Shown piece after piece: positions 3,966 to 19,093 of a DNA stretch of 19,093 nucleotides. The notes beneath the pieces were generated by a model. The model was not told where the DNA came from. It did not search any database and saw only the letters and a list, made by a program, of their open reading frames with translations. Source of the DNA: a virus (taxonomy: Duplodnaviria > Heunggongvirae > Uroviricota > Caudoviricetes); IMG/VR virus record IMGVR_UViG_2531839527_000011; one strand, given 5' to 3'. Numbering within the stretch: position 1 is the first letter of the stretch; every line of letters starts with the position of its first letter. The translations under genes and the position numbers were made by a program.

Positions 3966-4169
3966 TTACGGTGCTGTTTTAAGTCCTGCCGGGATTTCGT
4001 TATTATCCTGGTGAATAACTTTATCGACCGGATAACAGTTACCGGGAATTTTCTGCTCCACTGCGGCAACCATGCATTCTTTCATTGAGCCGTATACGCC
4101 AGTAACCATGTCAACCGGTTCACCGGAAACAAGAAAAACCGTCAGAACAAGTGCAAATGTAGTATTCAT
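3966..4169 (-). CDS. Small protein with N-terminal hydrophobic/signal-like segment (YdfD-like), 67 aa
   Basis: MNTTFALVLTVFLVSGEPV... hydrophobic N-terminus. Start overlaps the dicB-like stop in an ATGA arrangement. Position immediately downstream of dicB matches the Qin prophage gene order as I recall it. Confidence 0.5.
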   Translation of the reverse strand: MNTTFALVLTVFLVSGEPVDMVTGVYGSMKECMVAAVEQKIPGNCYPVDKVIHQDNNEIPAGLKTAP

Positions 4170-4354
4170 TGCCAGCATCCTTTTTGCATCAGGCGTAAAC
4201 GGGCCAGCATTGAAACAATGCATATTTTATCCAATAGCTCCCGTTCTTGTTTCCTCTTGTTAATGGCATCTTCAGTAAATACTGGGTTACTGATAGTGAC
4301 ACCAATTTCAAAACAACCTTCAGACGTATTAACGTTTGGTAATAACGTTTTCAT
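4166..4354 (-). CDS. dicB: Cell-division inhibitor DicB-like protein (62 aa)
   Basis: Internal ATG at 4354 with GAGGG RBS 8 nt upstream gives a 62-aa product MKTLLPNVNTSEGCFEIGVTISNPVFTEDAINKRKQERELLDKICIVSMLARLRLMQKGCWQ. This matches my recollection of E. coli DicB in both length and sequence. A dicF-like sequence lies directly upstream. Confidence 0.7.
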   Translation of the reverse strand: MKTLLPNVNTSEGCFEIGVTISNPVFTEDAINKRKQERELLDKICIVSMLARLRLMQKGCWQ

Positions 4355-4523
4355 TATCGCACCCTCAACAATGAATTTTGTGATGCGGTGCCTGGTGCCT
4401 CCAGGTGACGTTAACCAGTTAACAATTAACGCCGGATACAGAGAACCCATCCATAACACTGTTTTTGGTTTTAACTGTTCCGCGTGCGCTCAGCCGCATT
4501 CACCGCATCACAAAATTCACTTT

Positions 4524-4582
4524 AAAAAGGGCAGCAGAGCAGTCACGGAGTAAAACTGATACCACCAAACGTCACCAGAAAA
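4524..4582 (-). ncRNA. dicF: DicF-like small RNA
   Basis: Minus-strand sequence TTTTCTGGTGACGTTTGGTGGTATCAGTTTTACTCCGTGACTGCTCTGCTGCCCTTTTT is near-identical to the DicF sRNA as I remember it, ends in a T-run, and sits just upstream of dicB as in Qin. The plus-strand ORF 4583..4819 begins immediately beyond the 5' end of this call and is treated as non-coding. Confidence 0.65.
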
Positions 4583-4916
4583 TTGATAACAGAGGGCGTT
4601 GCAGCGGGGTTGTCACTTAAGCGTATGGTCAACCTGGCAACCCGGTGTCTCAATGGGGGAGGAATAACCCCGCCATACTTACCGCCGCGCCATTTCGCGG
4701 AGTGCCACAACCGGAAGCGCACGGTCGAATTAAATTTAACGACACCGTACAGTGAGACGAACTTCGCCGTGCGCTTTCGCGTTATGCCCTGGCTTTTCAG
4801 GGATATATCCTTTCAGTAAACTGTCAGTACCGGATTCTTATCCGTGTCCGGCGCACGACCACACGTGGCAGCGTGTTGGTCTCCATTTTTAACCCAGAAC
4901 CTCAATGGAGGATAAA

Positions 4917-5126
4917 ATGCCAAACAAAAAAAGAAATCCGCTTATTGAAAAACAGATTGAATGCCTGGTAAATCAACTCAGGCAATCAGGGTTATTAAAA
5001 ACTCATTCAGAGTTGAGGCTCACAGAATCAGCATTCGACGATAAATTAAATAATGTCCTTTATAATGGCATTATTGATTTTAATCGTTCAGTTGGTCGCC
5101 TCGGCCCTGCTGGTGTTTCCTTATAA
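4917..5126 (+). CDS. Hypothetical small protein (69 aa), AT-rich, convergent on the dicB operon
   Basis: ATG at 4917 preceded by a strong RBS (GGAGG, 5-nt spacer). Its stop codon (5124-5126) directly abuts the stop of the convergent 212-aa gene (5127-5129). Confidence 0.4.
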   Translation: MPNKKRNPLIEKQIECLVNQLRQSGLLKTHSELRLTESAFDDKLNNVLYNGIIDFNRSVGRLGPAGVSL

Positions 5127-5765
5127 TTACCAGTCAATCCAGAGCGGACCGTGTTCAGCGTAAATATAACTGTACACATCCAGATTATATTTGTGGTCTG
5201 TTAAGAACAGGCCGCAAATACATGCCGAAGCTTCCAGGGCAGCGGCTCTGTTACTGAATAACCATGTGGCAACATTCCAGCGTTTTTCTGCATCCCAGTC
5301 TTTCTCAAGGCCTGATACCATGAAGAAACCGTTAGTGTTGCCATCAAATAATTCTGTTTCCAGATTTTTAAGCAATGCCTGATGGACTCTTGCCAGGTAT
5401 TCCGCCGGAATTTCGCCACGAATTCTGATGAGATTGTCATAAACAAACATGTTCCCCGCATATGGCGATTTTTCTTTCTTGTTTTTTAAACCAGCATCAT
5501 GAGCAAACTGATCAATTTCTTCTTCCGTTGGTTTCGTATTGATGTTTTGCGCTGTCGTTTCTGCAATTTTATTTGCCACACTATCTGAGTCGTGTTTATT
5601 TACAGACGCACAGAAATACAATCCGGTAAACGCATCGCGCACATTACGAGCCATATTATCAGTGTCTTTTTTCGTTACCGATTCCAATGCAAGTTCGTTC
5701 AGACGATGACGAAGTGTGTGTGCTGCAATCTCCTGGATTGAAGTAGGTAAATCTTTAAATTCCAT
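5127..5765 (-). CDS. Hypothetical protein of the dicB operon (212 aa from MEFKDL; ydfB/ydfC-position protein)
   Basis: Long minus-strand ORF directly downstream of the ydfA-like gene. GAGG RBS 6 nt upstream of the ATG at 5765. An alternative ATG at 5777 overlaps the upstream stop (ATGA). No catalytic motif recognised. Confidence 0.6.
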   Translation of the reverse strand: MEFKDLPTSIQEIAAHTLRHRLNELALESVTKKDTDNMARNVRDAFTGLYFCASVNKHDSDSVANKIAETTAQNINTKPTEEEIDQFAHDAGLKNKKEKSPYAGNMFVYDNLIRIRGEIPAEYLARVHQALLKNLETELFDGNTNGFFMVSGLEKDWDAEKRWNVATWLFSNRAAALEASACICGLFLTDHKYNLDVYSYIYAEHGPLWIDW

Positions 5766-5776
5766 CGTCAACCTCA

Positions 5777-5929
5777 TCAGTCAGAGTTTCTTGCTAACCA
5801 GCGATGCGCGCCAGCTTCGGTTTTAAACGTTTTGCTTTTGGTATACGTCATCGCGGTGAACGTGCCGTCCTGGTTGGGAAACACGCCGCACACCAGAGAT
5901 TCGTTGTTGCCAAGATCGATAGTATCCAT
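5777..5929 (-). CDS. YdfA-like small protein (DUF1391-like), 50 aa
   Basis: MDTIDLGNNESLVCGVFPNQDGTFTAMTYTKSKTFKTEAGAHRWLARNSD resembles my recollection of E. coli YdfA. GAGG RBS 7 nt upstream of the ATG at 5929. First gene of the leftward operon. Confidence 0.55.
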   Translation of the reverse strand: MDTIDLGNNESLVCGVFPNQDGTFTAMTYTKSKTFKTEAGAHRWLARNSD

Positions 5930-6221
5930 GTTGACCTCATTTCCCCTTAACGCCGGGGTAGCGGAACAAAAACCTGCTGCATAGTTATTAAAGTTGAACC
6001 CTGCCGTCATGTTCTTACGCCTCGGGCTGGCTACTTACCCCCTGACCACTGCCGGGTAACTCGAAGTATTGCCCTGCATTCTGTGGGGTGGAGTGAGGGA
6101 ATGAATGAGGTTTAGAAAAATGAACTTTACAGGTCAATGTTTTTTTATCAAAACATTTTAAGCAGGCAGCTGTTAAGCCATCACCACGATGGCATACAGT
6201 TAATCAAATAGATGAGGTTGG

Positions 6222-6860
6222 TTAAATATCTTGTTGAATTTTAAAGCATACGCCCAATATGCAAGATAGATCATCCAGCATAATTGAAGGGTAGCGAGGA
6301 TTCGTGGGGACTAAAAGAATATCCGGCCCTTCTATCTCCAGTTTACGAATGACAGGTGTTGTGGTCCCTTTGGGTAAGGCAAGGACAATATTTCCTGGTT
6401 GTACGGTTCGATCGGGATCAACAAAAACTGTTGAACCATTTGGGATGGAAACTCCCCCACCAGATGTTGACATACTGTCACTCTCTAGAACAACTGCAAA
6501 GGTATTGGCCGGGATTTCTCCGACAAGCTGCACACAAGAGGTTATTGAGGAATTTTTCATATAATCACTCCAGCTTGCTGCCTGCTGAAGTGATAGTAGC
6601 GGAACCGTTTTTATCGGCGGTAAAGATAGATCAAGCGAATCACCTGTATTTAACTCTCCTCCATTAAGAAGCCAATTTTCGTTTACTTTCAATATCTTTG
6701 CCAGTGAACTTATGTAACGCGAGGACGGCGCTCCTCCACCGTTCATCCATTGACTTACGGAGCCTTTTGATGCGCCAGTGGCATTGACAAGGTCTTTGCC
6801 TTTCAGGTTTAGCGCATGCATACGTTGGGTTATGCGTTCAGATATTGTTTGCTTGCTCAT
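6222..6860 (-). CDS. CI-like prophage repressor (N-terminal HTH, C-terminal S24/LexA-like autopeptidase domain), 212 aa
   Basis: N-terminal HTH-like region (LKGKDLVNATGASKGSVSQWMNG). C-terminal domain has a Ser in a DSMS context and a Lys in VIRKLE at the spacing expected for an S24 Ser-Lys dyad. Divergent from the Cro-like gene. No SD sequence upstream of the ATG, suggesting a leaderless mRNA. Confidence 0.85.
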   Translation of the reverse strand: MSKQTISERITQRMHALNLKGKDLVNATGASKGSVSQWMNGGGAPSSRYISSLAKILKVNENWLLNGGELNTGDSLDLSLPPIKTVPLLSLQQAASWSDYMKNSSITSCVQLVGEIPANTFAVVLESDSMSTSGGGVSIPNGSTVFVDPDRTVQPGNIVLALPKGTTTPVIRKLEIEGPDILLVPTNPRYPSIMLDDLSCILGVCFKIQQDI

Positions 6861-6951
6861 GTTTTGATTTTAAAACACAGATGGTTTTGTTTCTTGACTT
6901 TCTTTGGTTTTGATTATTAAACTTTTGGCGTTCAGTTTTATGGAGCGACTC
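6861..6951. promoter_or_regulatory. Immunity-region operator/promoter region between the CI-like and Cro-like genes
   Basis: Three GTTTTG(A/T)TT repeats at 6861, 6884 and 6907, 23 bp apart. TTGACT -35-like hexamer at 6893-6898 oriented toward cro. 8-bp palindrome TTTTAAAA at 6867-6874. Confidence 0.5.
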
Positions 6952-7182
6952 ATGAAAAAATCAGAAGTATTAGGCTATTTTGGCGGAGTTGTTAAAACAG
7001 CCGCAGTTCTAGGAACGTCAAAAACCACAGTCAGCATGTGGGGGGAAGAGGTTCCGTGGAAATGGGCGTTGCTAATTCAGGCAGTCACTGCCGGGGCGCT
7101 CAAATATGAGTTACACATACCGACGGTTGTCATTCCCGGTTCTGATCATAATCCGCCTTCTAACCAAGGGGGGGATTCATGA
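6952..7182 (+). CDS. Cro/YdaS-like small HTH regulator (76 aa)
   Basis: ATG at 6952 with GGAG RBS. Small size and position divergent from the repressor. HTH-like segment VVKTAAVLGTSKTTVSMW. Stop overlaps the next start (ATGA). Confidence 0.7.
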   Translation: MKKSEVLGYFGGVVKTAAVLGTSKTTVSMWGEEVPWKWALLIQAVTAGALKYELHIPTVVIPGSDHNPPSNQGGDS

Positions 7183-7604
7183 AAATCAAGCATGAACACA
7201 TCCGCATGGCGATGAATGCCTGGGCGCGTCCTGATGGCGAAAAAGTTCCAGCAGCTGGAATAACCCAGGCTTATTTTGAGTTGGGTATGACGTTCCCAGA
7301 ACTGTATGACGACAGCCATCCGGAAGCCCTGGCTCGCAATACCCAGAAAATTTTCCGCTGGATAGAGAAAGACACCCCTGATGCAGTTGAAAAAATTCAG
7401 GCGTTGTTACCAGCGATCGAAAAGGCAATGCCACCTTTGCTGGTGGCCAGAATGCGCAGCCACAGTTCAGCTTATTTTCGGGAGCTGGTGGAGACGCGGG
7501 AACGACTGGTGAGAGACGCTGATGATTTTGTCGCAGTGGCAATCGCCGGTTTCAATCAGATGAACCGTGGTGGCCCGGCAGGAAATGCTGTGGCAGTGCA
7601 TTGA
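7179..7604 (+). CDS. YdaT-family protein (CII-position regulator), 141 aa
   Basis: Translationally coupled to the Cro-like gene. N-terminus MKIKHEHI... matches the start of Rac YdaT-like proteins as I recall them. Confidence 0.55.
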   Translation: MKIKHEHIRMAMNAWARPDGEKVPAAGITQAYFELGMTFPELYDDSHPEALARNTQKIFRWIEKDTPDAVEKIQALLPAIEKAMPPLLVARMRSHSSAYFRELVETRERLVRDADDFVAVAIAGFNQMNRGGPAGNAVAVH

Positions 7605-7675
7605 GTGATAATAGCCATATCGAATCACTTCCGGCAACTCGTGAGTAAAAAGATTCGGTATCAGAAGAGGTGAGT

Positions 7676-15141: not shown

Positions 15142-15827
15142 ATAACCAGTATTTACAGTTTGTTCGTGAGCAACTCATGATTGCCACCGCCGATTTGAGT
15201 GGATCAACAAAAGGGCAGCTTGAAGCCTGGCAGGAGAATGCCATGTTCGATACAGGGCGTTACAGGCGAAAAAAAATCCGGTACCGCGATGAAGTGACTG
15301 GAAAAATGATAACGCGGGATAATCCACCAATCCCGGGAAAGCAATCGCTGGCGAAAGGTTCATCAATTGCCCTGGTCAGTCCGGTTGAGTTTTCGACATC
15401 ATCATGGCGACGCGCCGTTCTGTCTCTTGAAGAGCATCAGAAGGCGTGGGTGCTGTGGGTATACAGTGAAAATCCGAGTTGGGATTATCAGGTGGTCATT
15501 GCGAAATGGGCGTGGGATAAGTTTCAGGTGCATTTTGGCACCAGAAAAATTACAGGGAAAACGCTTGAGCGTCTGAAGAAATTAATCTGGCTGGCGGCGC
15601 AGGATGTCAGGGGGAGGATTACTGGGCGTGACGTCTACCAGCGACAGGAACTTGCCAGACTGTGTGGAGTTAAGCCTGACAACTGGAGCCATAATTATGC
15701 GAACTACTGGCGTGAGATGTGCGACATTTTTAAGAAACTCGATACAGAATCCTTGATTTGCACCGTGAAAATGAGATCGCAACAAAAAGCGACCTTTTCA
15801 CGACGAGATATTGCAAAAGTCAATTAA
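15138..15827 (+). CDS. Putative late-gene antiterminator Q (229 aa)
   Basis: Sits immediately after rusA and immediately before a promoter-plus-terminator unit, which is the canonical Q/PR'/tR' arrangement. The protein is not confidently matched by motif; the call is positional. Confidence 0.5.
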   Translation: MNNQYLQFVREQLMIATADLSGSTKGQLEAWQENAMFDTGRYRRKKIRYRDEVTGKMITRDNPPIPGKQSLAKGSSIALVSPVEFSTSSWRRAVLSLEEHQKAWVLWVYSENPSWDYQVVIAKWAWDKFQVHFGTRKITGKTLERLKKLIWLAAQDVRGRITGRDVYQRQELARLCGVKPDNWSHNYANYWREMCDIFKKLDTESLICTVKMRSQQKATFSRRDIAKVN

Positions 15828-15873: not shown

Positions 15874-15898
15874 AAACCCGCTTAAATGCGGGTTTTTT
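15874..15898 (+). terminator. tR'-like intrinsic terminator about 35-50 nt downstream of the putative late promoter
   Basis: AAACCCGC-TTAAAT-GCGGGTTT followed by a T-run. Confidence 0.65.
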
Positions 15899-15971
15899 GC
15901 TTAACTCTGTGGACCTTTTTATCTGTAGTTGTAAGATATGGATATTCTTACAATTTAGGTCGGTGAGCTTA

Positions 15972-16736
15972 ATGGAAGAACAGCACGGTAATTACTTTAT
16001 AAAACGAATTCAGTTGATTGGAAGGGGTGCATTTGGCTTTGTTGAACACGTTAAGGTTTACAACCTCAACAAGGGTGAATGTGGGGATTATGCTAGAAAG
16101 GTTTTAGCCCCCGAAAAACCAGAGCTTTTGGCGCAAATAGAGCAGTTTAGAAGGCGTTTTAAAAGGGAGGTCGTGTATCAATCACATTGCGTACATAGCA
16201 ATATTGTTCCTATTTATTTGTGCGATTTGTTTGCCGAGAATCCATGGTTCATTATGGATAAAGCAGAATGTGATCTTGAGCACGAAATAACGAACAACCT
16301 TCTTACAACAGATCAAAAAATTTCAATAGTGAAAATGGTATTAGATGGTGTAGCTCACATCCATGCGAAAGGCTATTTACACAGAGATATAAAACCATTT
16401 AATGTCTTGCGATTTAGCGACGGAACATACAAGGTGTCTGATTTTGGTCTGGTAAAAGATACAAATCCCGAAGGGGATACCACTAAATTGACCGAGATCG
16501 GTACCCGTATGGGAAGTACAAGATATATGGCTCCCGAGATTTTATATAATGCCGAGTATTCAGTTAAGACTGATGTTTATGCGGTGGGGCGGTTAATTGA
16601 GGACTTAAATTTAGATGATAAAAAAATAAAGCCTATCATAGCGAAGTGTACCAGGATGGATAAAGATGATAGATATCAGACAATAGATGATGTGGCGTTT
16701 GATTTTGTGCATTCTTTTTTAAGGAGTGAGTCATGA
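15972..16736 (+). CDS. Hanks-type (eukaryotic-like) Ser/Thr protein kinase, catalytic domain only (254 aa)
   Basis: Gly-rich loop IGRGAFGFV, Lys in YARK, catalytic loop HRDIKPFN, DFG, and YMAPE activation-segment motif. AT-rich. Confidence 0.85.
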   Translation: MEEQHGNYFIKRIQLIGRGAFGFVEHVKVYNLNKGECGDYARKVLAPEKPELLAQIEQFRRRFKREVVYQSHCVHSNIVPIYLCDLFAENPWFIMDKAECDLEHEITNNLLTTDQKISIVKMVLDGVAHIHAKGYLHRDIKPFNVLRFSDGTYKVSDFGLVKDTNPEGDTTKLTEIGTRMGSTRYMAPEILYNAEYSVKTDVYAVGRLIEDLNLDDKKIKPIIAKCTRMDKDDRYQTIDDVAFDFVHSFLRSES

Positions 16737-17476
16737 TTCAGCTGATAGCGACTTCATCATTCTCGTATCCAAAAGAACCAGGTAGGGTCAACGAAGATTC
16801 ATTGCTTCCTCCCAAAATTGTAGGGGATGGCATCTTATTTGCCGTAGCTGATGGTGTAGGTTCATACACTGGTGCCAGTCAGGCTTCATCAATGGCAATT
16901 GCTGAACTTTCAGCATTGACAAGCTTATCTTTTGACACAGTTCCGGATGTATTTGATGAAGTTAAGCGAAAGGTTATGTCGTTAGCTGATGTTAATGATG
17001 AGTTCGATAAAGCTGCTACTACACTTACGTTTTGTTATGTTTGTGATAGCGGAATTATTATTGGTCATATTGGTGATTGTCGTTTGTATTGCATTGGAGA
17101 GAAGAAAGCATACCAATTGACGAAGGACGATACCAGGCATCAGATGCTAATTGATCAGAATATTTTTAAACCCAGAGATTTGAAGGATAAACCGGGCAAA
17201 AATATCTTAACGACGGCTATAGCCTCAAATGTTGATATGGAATACGACTGTGATTTTATCACATGGAAAGATTTACCTAGTATTAACGGGGTATATCATC
17301 TGTGTATCATGTCTGATGGGGTTCATAACGTTTGGGAAAAACGCCCCAGATTTACATCAAATACGATGAGTAATAGTCAGAAGTTTTCTAATGGCATTTT
17401 GCGTCGTATAGAGAGAGCCGGACCTGATGATGACTTTTCTTTAGTAAGTATAATGGTGCGTGTGACGTCAGATTAG
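16733..17476 (+). CDS. PP2C-family (PPM) Ser/Thr phosphatase (247 aa)
   Basis: NEDS, AVADGVGS, GHIGDCRLY and MSDGV motifs correspond to the PPM metal-binding motifs. AAGGAG RBS; ATGA start/stop overlap with the kinase. Confidence 0.8.
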   Translation: MIQLIATSSFSYPKEPGRVNEDSLLPPKIVGDGILFAVADGVGSYTGASQASSMAIAELSALTSLSFDTVPDVFDEVKRKVMSLADVNDEFDKAATTLTFCYVCDSGIIIGHIGDCRLYCIGEKKAYQLTKDDTRHQMLIDQNIFKPRDLKDKPGKNILTTAIASNVDMEYDCDFITWKDLPSINGVYHLCIMSDGVHNVWEKRPRFTSNTMSNSQKFSNGILRRIERAGPDDDFSLVSIMVRVTSD

Positions 17477-18043: not shown

Positions 18044-19093
18044 ATGACTAATACTGTAAAAATATCCAGTTGTGAGTTGATCAACGCTGATTGCCTGAAA
18101 TTTATCCAGACCTTACCGGAAAACTCTGTCGATCTGATAGTCACAGACCCGCCATACTTTAAAGTGAAGCCCGAGGGCTGGGATAACCAGTGGGAGGGCG
18201 ACGATGATTACCTGAAATGGCTGGACCAGTGTCTGGCGCAGTTCTGGCGGGTACTGAAGCCTGCCGGAAGTCTTTACCTGTTCTGTGGTCATCGCCTGGC
18301 ATCTGACACCGAAATCATGATGCGTGAGCGCTTTAATGTGCTGAACCACATTATCTGGGCGAAGCCGTCCGGACGCTGGAACGGGTGCAATAAGGAAAGT
18401 CTGCGGGCGTATTTTCCGGCAACAGAGCGCATTCTGTTTGCAGAACATTATCAGGGACCGTATCGCCCGAAAGATGATGGCTATGTGGCACAGGGGCGCG
18501 AGCTAAAACAGCACGTCATGGCCCCGCTGATTTCTTACTTTCGTGATGCGCGTAAATCACTGGGAATAACGTCAAAACAGATAGCGGAAGCCACCGGAAA
18601 GAAAAACATGGCTTCGCACTGGTTTGGTACCAGTCAGTGGCAGTTACCGAACGAGGGTGATTACAACAAATTGCAGGCGTTGTTTGCGCGTGTTGCGGCA
18701 GAAAAACATCAGCGCGGGGAACTGGAAAAACCACACCACCAGCTGGTCAGCACATACAGTGAGCTGAACCGGCAGTATACGGAATTGCTGAGTGAATATA
18801 AAAATTTGCGGCGGTATTTCGGTGTGACGGCGCAGGTTCCGTACACCGATGTCTGGACGCATAAACCGGTGCAGTACTATCCAGGAAAACATCCGTGCGA
18901 AAAACCGGCAGAAATGCTGCAGCAGATAATCAACGCGAGCAGTCGTCCGGGAGACCTGGTTGCAGATTTTTTTATGGGTTCAGGTTCAACGGTAAAAGCG
19001 GCGATGGCACTGGGGCGTTGTGCGATTGGTGTTGAGCTGGAGACAGGACGTTTTGAACAGACAGTCAGGGAAGTTCAGGATTTAATCGTTTGA
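18044..19093 (+). CDS. DNA methyltransferase, beta-class amino-MTase (N6-adenine or N4-cytosine), 349 aa
   Basis: Motif IV DPPY (VTDPPYF) near the N-terminus and motif I FxGxG (DFFMGSGST) near the C-terminus. Complete ORF ending at the last base of the window. Confidence 0.85.
   Translation: MTNTVKISSCELINADCLKFIQTLPENSVDLIVTDPPYFKVKPEGWDNQWEGDDDYLKWLDQCLAQFWRVLKPAGSLYLFCGHRLASDTEIMMRERFNVLNHIIWAKPSGRWNGCNKESLRAYFPATERILFAEHYQGPYRPKDDGYVAQGRELKQHVMAPLISYFRDARKSLGITSKQIAEATGKKNMASHWFGTSQWQLPNEGDYNKLQALFARVAAEKHQRGELEKPHHQLVSTYSELNRQYTELLSEYKNLRRYFGVTAQVPYTDVWTHKPVQYYPGKHPCEKPAEMLQQIINASSRPGDLVADFFMGSGSTVKAAMALGRCAIGVELETGRFEQTVREVQDLIV

Follow-up and report, generated by a model that had tools for sequence, protein, structure and literature searches.

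The question raised by this locus is why two pairs of convergent genes should end virtually on the same bases with nothing resembling a terminator between them. The window studied is the whole 19,093-nucleotide (nt) stretch of the virus record IMGVR_UViG_2531839527_000011. In pair 1, a small plus-strand gene of 69 codons (ORF69; ORF, open reading frame) faces a minus-strand gene (ORF212), and in pair 2 a plus-strand Q-family antiterminator gene faces a minus-strand rexB-like gene. The initial annotation had read this arrangement as a possible means of mutual repression between accessory modules. The explanation that we prefer, with a probability of about 0.65, is that both junctions arise from accessory cassettes inserted in reverse inside long, read-through lambdoid early operons. 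Antisense and interference effects may then be a by-product of the layout, possibly exploited, rather than a dedicated mutual-repression switch.

First of all, the geometry of the junctions was established. The ORF69 stop codon (TAA, 5124-5126) is directly followed by that of the minus-strand gene, which is the reverse complement of TTA at 5127-5129, and in pair 2 the Q-family stop (TAG, 10410-10412) and the minus-strand stop (10418-10420) are 5 nt apart (ATATA), both as first described. The minus-strand gene of pair 1 had been drawn from 5777, but its conserved start is instead the ATG at 5765 (MEFKDLP...), which has a GAGG Shine-Dalgarno sequence 7 nt upstream. The reported lack of a terminator was borne out by a pattern scan and by folding, as no convincing intrinsic terminator was found at either junction on either strand. 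The pattern scan gave 10 sites in 9 kb, compared with 9.6 by chance, and the two weak terminator-like sites near the junctions (5101-5113 on the plus strand and 10503-10481 on the minus strand) each lie within coding sequence; the T-rich tail of the former is missing in L004, an 81%-identical copy. Likewise, when 100 nt over each junction were folded, a hairpin followed by a U-run was found on neither strand: junction 1 gave a CTGGT/ACCAG stem of 5-7 bp without a U-tract, and junction 2 a z-score of about 0. The junction 1 hairpin was also considered as a bidirectional terminator and rejected, since neither strand carries a U-tract and the stem comes from conserved C-terminal codons. Read-through without a terminator would therefore generate overlapping antisense 3' ends.

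The junctions are conserved. The zero-gap arrangement TGG TAA/TTA CAA was retained in E. coli variants at 75-83% identity and in copies with a synonymous divergence (dS) of 0.37-0.64, one of which resides in another type of element, from Salmonella; judged from the sequences, the conservation of junction 1 exceeds chance. Pair 2 has a counterpart in a Klebsiella prophage, where an 8-nt overlap is retained at 73% nucleotide identity.

All four genes look real. ORF69 is preceded by a GGAGG Shine-Dalgarno sequence, matches PHROG 4274 over its full length and has relatives in 36 protein clusters from E. coli, E. albertii and Salmonella; its length and stop codon are retained across E. coli and Salmonella. 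The ratio of non-synonymous to synonymous divergence (dN/dS), calculated with four copies from three main lineages, was 0.15-0.26 in five of six pairwise comparisons, and in the sixth (L004 against L014) it was 0, with nine synonymous differences and no non-synonymous one. In alternative frames the same copies gave dN/dS above 1 in four of five cases. Searches with ORF69 in Pfam, PADLOC, NCBIfam and PDB sequences, as well as tblastn against 50,697 phage records, yielded no match. ORF212 has 153 homologues with identities down to about 64% and a dN/dS of 0.32, and it gave no match in the Pfam, PADLOC, NCBIfam and PDB sequence searches either. The Q-family gene and both genes facing it also have diverged full-length homologues.

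By its sequence, the whole window is a Qin/Rac-like lambdoid E. coli prophage, and positions 4500-11900 are 100% identical to a prophage adjoining potC in several human enterotoxigenic E. coli strains. In the RefSeq annotation of the identical record, which covers the stretch and its flanks, the minus-strand genes integrase, excisionase, RecE-type exonuclease, DUF1482 and dicB come first, followed by two hypothetical genes, DUF1391 and a LexA-family repressor. The plus-strand genes are cro, ydaT, a replication organiser, DUF977, DUF4406, DUF4752 and the Q-family antiterminator, beyond which two minus-strand genes precede hokD and nin-type genes. Read leftwards, the operon comprises DUF1391, ORF212, the antisense of ORF69, DicF, dicB, DUF1482, exo, xis and int. 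Downstream of junction 2 lie hok, rusA and a positionally canonical Q.

From this map, leftward transcription would begin at a promoter beside the cI-like repressor gene and run through DUF1391, ORF212 and the antisense strand of ORF69 into DicF, dicB, the exonuclease gene, xis and int. The rightward early operon would likewise pass from the replication genes and the Q-family gene, antisense to the RexA/RexB-like module, into hok, rusA and the second Q. The cI-like repressor is expected to hold the early operons off in the lysogen, and ORF69, to judge from its position, would be made there from its own signals during operon repression. The stages would differ, the reverse genes being expressed in the lysogen and the backbone operons after induction, so that the relation would be asymmetric; such lysogen-versus-induction exclusivity is more likely than mutual repression. 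The missing terminators fit this scheme. There would be no minus-strand terminator at 5127 because one would cut off DicF, dicB and everything downstream, and no plus-strand terminator at 10413 because rightward transcription must reach hok, rusA and the second Q, while the reverse genes would be without intrinsic terminators of their own because no spacer is left for them. Transcripts of the reverse genes would probably end through Rho acting on untranslated, C-rich antisense RNA, or by polymerase collision. The C/G ratio of the read-through RNA is 1.0-2.0 past ORF69 and 1.4-2.7 past the rexB-like gene, in contrast to 0.44-1.17 for the backbone read-through RNA in the first ~200 nt beyond the junctions, and Rho would therefore be favoured for the transcripts of the reverse genes, but not for those of the backbone. 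Once the prophage is induced, polymerases meeting head-on would cause further interference, of the kind measured for antisense promoters in E. coli (PMC4731013).

The involvement of accessory cargo in each pair, suggested from the start, was substantiated, as both cassettes have been exchanged horizontally: pair 1 belongs to a mosaic block and pair 2 to an island of low G+C content (Table 1). In phages Tritos and 640R1 the whole mosaic block is replaced by ydfB/ydfC-type genes; in the latter phage a predicted plus-strand ORF overlaps ydfC by 36 nt. The cassette of pair 1 was found in 597 of 5426 complete E. coli genomes (about 11%), O157:H7 included. It also occurs in an integrative element of Salmonella whose repressor is of the Mu type; there, too, the ORF212 homologue stands after early genes with ORF69 facing it. 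The island of pair 2 has 33-38% G+C compared with ~50% in its flanks and lies between a conserved left flank and hok/sok. Only 19 of the 5426 E. coli genomes contain it whole; in most E. coli, different cargo stands between these flanks.

The cargo of pair 2 can be read as Rex-like by fold and architecture while standing outside the RexA and RexB sequence families. The DUF6731 protein has the RexA fold; Pfam assigns it only to DUF6731, BLASTP against lambda RexA gave an E value of 5.9 and phmmer against PDB did not find RexA. For the 159-aa (amino acid) membrane protein, BLASTP against lambda RexB detected no similarity, PADLOC gave a weak RexB match (E 0.0015, residues 14-83) and hhalign of the membrane-protein alignment against lambda RexB pointed to the same region with a non-significant probability of 2.5%. 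In Pfam this protein had no match at E <=0.01, and up to E 10 only weak, unrelated membrane families appeared, RexB not among them. A DUF6731 gene followed by a polytopic membrane protein of 149-167 aa forms a conserved unit in Klebsiella, Rahnella, Photobacterium and Marinobacterium, in prophages as well as in other islands; no literature on DUF6731 was found. From its fold and gene order, the module would be expected to act as a phage-exclusion system expressed in the lysogen. In the Klebsiella variicola prophage with the 8-nt overlap, the reversed module stands between DUF968-Q and holin/lysozyme genes. Positions 10065-11828 are 73% identical to that whole block, from inside Q to the DUF6731 start codon, and therefore the C-terminal two-thirds of Q, the rexB-like gene and the rexA-like gene moved as one piece. 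The possibility that Q is a third component of the module was rejected, given that the module occurs without it in Rahnella, Photobacterium and Marinobacterium; the Rahnella copy has no facing gene and carries a hairpin followed by UCUUUUU after its stop codon.

The Q-family gene of pair 2 has the Q domain, with 32-60% identity to phage Q proteins over residues 62-168. It does not stand in the canonical place of a late regulator, just upstream of a late promoter/qut site and lysis genes; instead, the reverse module comes next, and after it hok/sok, Fic, DUF968, rusA and a second Q. Given that second Q, the prophage probably does not use this one as its active late regulator.

Several observations weigh against the interpretation of both cassettes as reversed lysogeny cargo in read-through operons. 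ORF69 has neither a membrane or hydrophobic segment nor similarity to SieB, the members of whose family are membrane proteins of ~160-190 aa related in sequence, so that its likeness to SieB is positional only. No good sigma-70 promoter was predicted upstream of it: the sole 9/12 match nearby places its -10 element on the initiation codon, and a candidate at 4794-4822 is weak (8/12). Moreover, ORF69 is frameshifted in L010 and internally deleted in L011 with ORF212 intact in both, and given this loss in some copies its importance is uncertain. In pair 2, a hairpin with a U-rich run lies ~85 nt before the rexB-like stop codon in three enterobacterial copies (10460-10534 on the minus strand in the window; L020 and L022) and could end some transcripts before junction 2. 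Its stem is CCCAA..TTGGG, or CCCAG..CTGGG in Rahnella, with one compensatory change, at synonymous sites; the copies from Photobacterium and Marinobacterium lack this hairpin. Finally, the prophage looks defective, and expression today may depart from the ancestral design. Compared with the otherwise 99% identical strain E1739, exo has five 1-nt deletions (1595, 2920, 2950, 3132 and 3217) which split one 2472-nt RecE-type gene into fragments, and cro and DUF4406 are annotated as frameshifted in the identical stretch; probably the prophage is defective or the assembly contains homopolymer errors.

Among the other explanations, the one closest to the initial annotation holds that the missing terminators have been selected, convergent transcription and antisense 3' ends acting as a dedicated bistable or mutual-repression device. 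In E. coli, convergent promoters do repress where no bidirectional terminator separates them, and the stronger an antisense promoter at a gene end, the stronger its repression (PMC4731013). At the position of pair 1, 3' ends that are tight or overlap are shared by at least seven unrelated cassette types, and for pair 2 they are found in two hosts, and the zero-gap junction survives dS values of about 0.4-0.6. In addition, a promoter-like site at junction 2 (10435-10406, minus strand; ATAACA-18-TATAAT, 10/12) would fire antisense into Q; it recalls lambda paQ and in such AT-rich DNA may be a chance match. However, the backbone is repressor-controlled, so there would be little backbone transcription to repress in the lysogen, and after induction the relation would be one-sided. 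Q is a non-conserved partner of the Rex-like module, reverse cargo elsewhere in the slot of pair 2 does not abut (there is a 237-nt gap in phage Tritos, for example), and one cassette type at the position of pair 1 has a 78-nt gap. Compaction together with the need for read-through accounts for the same data, and we regard a dedicated device as unlikely.

A second explanation arises from the family of cassettes to which pair 1 belongs. No fewer than seven cassette types occupy the slot between DUF1391 and DicF/dicB (slot 1). Their 3' gaps are 0, -12, -44, -23, -23, -32 and +78 nt, so that the convergent gene abuts or overlaps in all types but the last. Each type has an operon-sense gene with a common N-terminus of ~55 aa and a differing C-terminus; the small ORF converging on it is unrelated from type to type and has a good Shine-Dalgarno sequence. 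A search with the N-terminal domain among 1.8 billion representatives gave 34 clusters, 32 of which have total lengths of 51-201 aa; the domain is N-terminal in 31 of these 32 short clusters, and the remaining two clusters are long proteins with internal matches. The convergent partners of four types share their translation start region, CTCAATGGAGGATAAAATG, and diverge afterwards. It could be, then, that ORF212/ORF69 and the other cassettes are cognate effector-antidote pairs in the manner of polymorphic toxin/immunity loci, in which variable C-terminal effectors are made on induction and the convergent antidote constitutively. The partner type does track the C-terminal type, and the pair was transferred as a unit to the Salmonella element of a different type. 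However, physical overlap alone predicts such co-variation, ORF69 is frameshifted or deleted in several copies that keep ORF212 intact, neither protein matches toxin, immunity or defence profiles, and the ORF212 structure model is of low confidence with no informative fold match. These cassettes are thus quite doubtful as effector-antidote pairs.

Finally, that each pair contains a spurious ORF, and hence that no true convergent pair exists, as the shortness of ORF69, its lack of domain and tblastn matches and the failure to find a clear promoter for it might suggest, is extremely improbable in view of the constraint on its own reading frame, its kept length and stop, its strong Shine-Dalgarno sequence and the diverged full-length homologues of ORF212, Q, the rexB-like gene and DUF6731.

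The features of both loci and their surroundings are collected in Table 1.

Table 1. Features of the two convergent loci and of the early operons around them.
Feature	Position	Strand	Basis or remark
dicB cell-division inhibitor	4166..4354	-	RefSeq annotation, identical stretch in L001; further down the leftward operon
DicF small RNA	4529-4580	-	Rfam RF00039, 66.9 bits; downstream of junction 1, same leftward operon
Mosaic cassette 1 (ORF69 + ORF212)	4858..5783	.	BLAST break points versus phages Tritos and 640R1
ORF69, 69 aa, small protein gene in the 'sieB slot', antisense to the early-left operon	4917..5126	+	
Junction 1, stops back to back (TAA/TTA)	5124..5129	.	Also in L004, L006, L008, L014, L016
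ORF212, operon-sense; conserved ~55-aa N-terminal domain (MEFKDLP...), variable C-terminal part	5127..5765	-	
DUF1391 (ydfA/ydaF-like), early-left operon gene 1	5777..5929	-	Pfam PF07151, E 1.9e-29
cI-like LexA-family repressor (helix-turn-helix + S24 peptidase)	6222..6860	-	Pfam Peptidase_S24 + HTH_3; PHROG 4 transcriptional repressor
Low-GC island: Q + rexB-like + rexA-like, cargo slot upstream of hok/sok	9878..12089	.	Composition profile, break points
Q-family antiterminator (PF06530), extra ~60-aa N-terminus	9888..10412	+	Pfam E 2.6e-30, residues 62-168
RexB-like small polytopic membrane protein, 159 aa, reverse-module gene 2	10418..10897	-	Invariably follows DUF6731 in five taxa
RexA-like gene (DUF6731), reverse-module gene 1	10913..11827	-	
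sok RNA / hokD toxin locus, next rightward unit past the reverse module	12107..12431	+	Rfam RF01794, 108.7 bits (sok 12107-12281); annotation
Second Q antiterminator (PF06323)	15132..15827	+	Pfam E 5.2e-84; usual late-regulator position, before the late region

Some further observations were made on the cassettes of slot 1. A run of seven A residues at 4926-4932 (codons 4-6 of ORF69) is one of six in 4 of ~27 IMG/VR contigs carrying the cassette (L040, L044, L048 and L053), in which ORF69 is frameshifted and ORF212 intact; the difference could be slippage-prone on/off variation or a homopolymer sequencing error. In L011 and L013 (3799-4434) and in the IMG/VR contig L054, where ORF69 is reduced to a remnant, the interval from the ORF212 homologue to dicB contains another reverse ORF, marked by CxxC...CxxC motifs. 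This ORF, of up to 211 aa (172 aa from the first ATG; the longest ORF is 211-252 aa in the IMG/VR copies), is a further antisense insertion in the same leftward operon. The convergent partner with the 78-nt gap, found in the IMG/VR contigs L105 and L106, has 148 aa and hydrophobic segments; it gave no Pfam match, and no other partner comes as near to being a membrane protein of the SieB kind. In the other cassette types, the partner ORFs produced nothing in Pfam beyond zinc-ribbon hints below threshold, and the partner gene of type B has a possible hairpin with a U-tract, an exception among the slot 1 junctions. ORF212 was also considered as an N-like antiterminator, a candidate that was rejected since it lacks an arginine-rich motif and gave no match. 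A literature search with the RefSeq protein accessions and 'Ybl81' found nothing.

Additionally, upstream of the RexA-like gene (11940-11975), the palindrome GTTACCATGGTAAC is accompanied by a partial repeat (TTACCAACGC...GTTACCATGG) close by and could be an operator of the module's promoter. At the conserved left edge of the cargo slot, before the start of the Q-family gene, there is a strong GC hairpin with a GAAA loop (GCCGCCC GAAA GGGCGGT, 9856-9880) whose 61-nt fold has -17.4 kcal/mol and a z-score of -2.2 without a U-tract; it could be boxB-like, serve as a processing site or mark a boundary of recombination. Elsewhere in the window, segments of ~46 nt are repeated at 7800-7845 and 8070-8115 within the replication-organiser (O-like) gene and are probably origin iterons. 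More accessory cargo was observed in the nin/late-regulatory region, namely a Fic/DOC protein, a eukaryote-type Ser/Thr kinase, a PP2C phosphatase and a DNA methylase (12836-13330, 15897-16736, 16733-17476 and 18044-19093), the kinase and then the phosphatase directly following the second Q.

With both junctions attributed to reversed cassettes in read-through early operons, the convergent layout is a normal lambdoid feature and indicates no new regulatory principle. The novelty lies in what the cassettes carry: in one case a RexA-fold module from a DUF family that had no annotation, in the other an allele belonging to a widespread family of variable cassettes. DUF6731 can be interpreted as having the RexA fold and a partner resembling RexB, so that the range of Rex-type exclusion modules would take in Klebsiella, Rahnella, Vibrionaceae and others, as well as another position in the phage genome. 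The 'sieB slot' of prophages bearing DicF and dicB holds variable cassettes of fixed design that are common in pathogenic E. coli. A bolder proposal, which we consider a long shot, is that the slot between DUF1391 and DicF/dicB houses a previously undescribed, polymorphic two-gene system of Qin/Rac-like prophages in which the convergent 3' overlap enforces mutual exclusivity. If so, the ~55-aa N-terminal domain would carry one of about 30 C-terminal parts and be made on induction, its own convergent small protein would be made in the lysogen, and an effector/antidote or exclusion system would have ORF69/ORF212 among its alleles. The two loci are clean natural test cases for the action of Rho and of polymerase collisions at spacer-free convergent genes.

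Comparison with known systems places both loci among familiar arrangements. In pore-forming colicin operons the immunity gene lies on the strand opposite to an inducible effector with polymorphic C-terminal parts. Pair 1 resembles them in its variable C-terminal parts and in having a small convergent gene between a read-through operon gene and the operon genes that follow; the two are related neither in sequence nor in fold. In the Q region of lambda, morons adjoin Q and the promoter paQ directs transcription antisense into it; in contrast, the antisense source in pair 2 would be read-through of the whole reverse operon. The lambda Rex genes adjoin cI and are co-transcribed with it, whereas the module of the window lies 3.5 kb away from the repressor gene, in reverse orientation within the nin/Q region, belongs to a different sequence family (DUF6731) and has a weakly hinted relation to RexB. 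The Qin genes ydfA-ydfB-ydfC-DicF-dicB-ydfD form one polycistronic transcript from a repressor-controlled promoter, from which RNase E processing releases DicF (PMC5069750). As in this dicBF operon, a DUF1391/ydfA-like gene is followed in the window by DicF, dicB and DUF1482 in the same order and on the same strand, with an adjacent repressor. Unlike Qin, the window carries the ORF212 and ORF69 cassette in place of ydfB/ydfC and a cI-like repressor of the LexA family instead of DicA, and in K-12 Qin no reverse gene is annotated in this slot. The closest parallel is provided by sieB. In lambda, sieB (plus strand, 34482-35036) abuts N (minus strand, 35037-35438) with 0 nt between them, in the same slot as ORF69, and in the Rac prophage of K-12 sieB and the minus-strand ydaF/DUF1391 share 4 nt, with the KilS small RNA and kilR, which encodes an FtsZ inhibitor, coming next. 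Like these genes, ORF69 lies on the opposite strand just past the first early-left genes and upstream of division-inhibitor genes, and its 3' end abuts that of its neighbour with no intervening terminator; compared with both, ORF212 is an extra operon-sense gene between DUF1391 and the reverse gene. The succession of DUF1391, KilS and kilR in Rac thus parallels that of DUF1391, DicF and dicB in the window, and the layout of both pairs is the standard one for reverse-oriented lysogeny genes in lambdoid early operons, as known from lambda and Rac.

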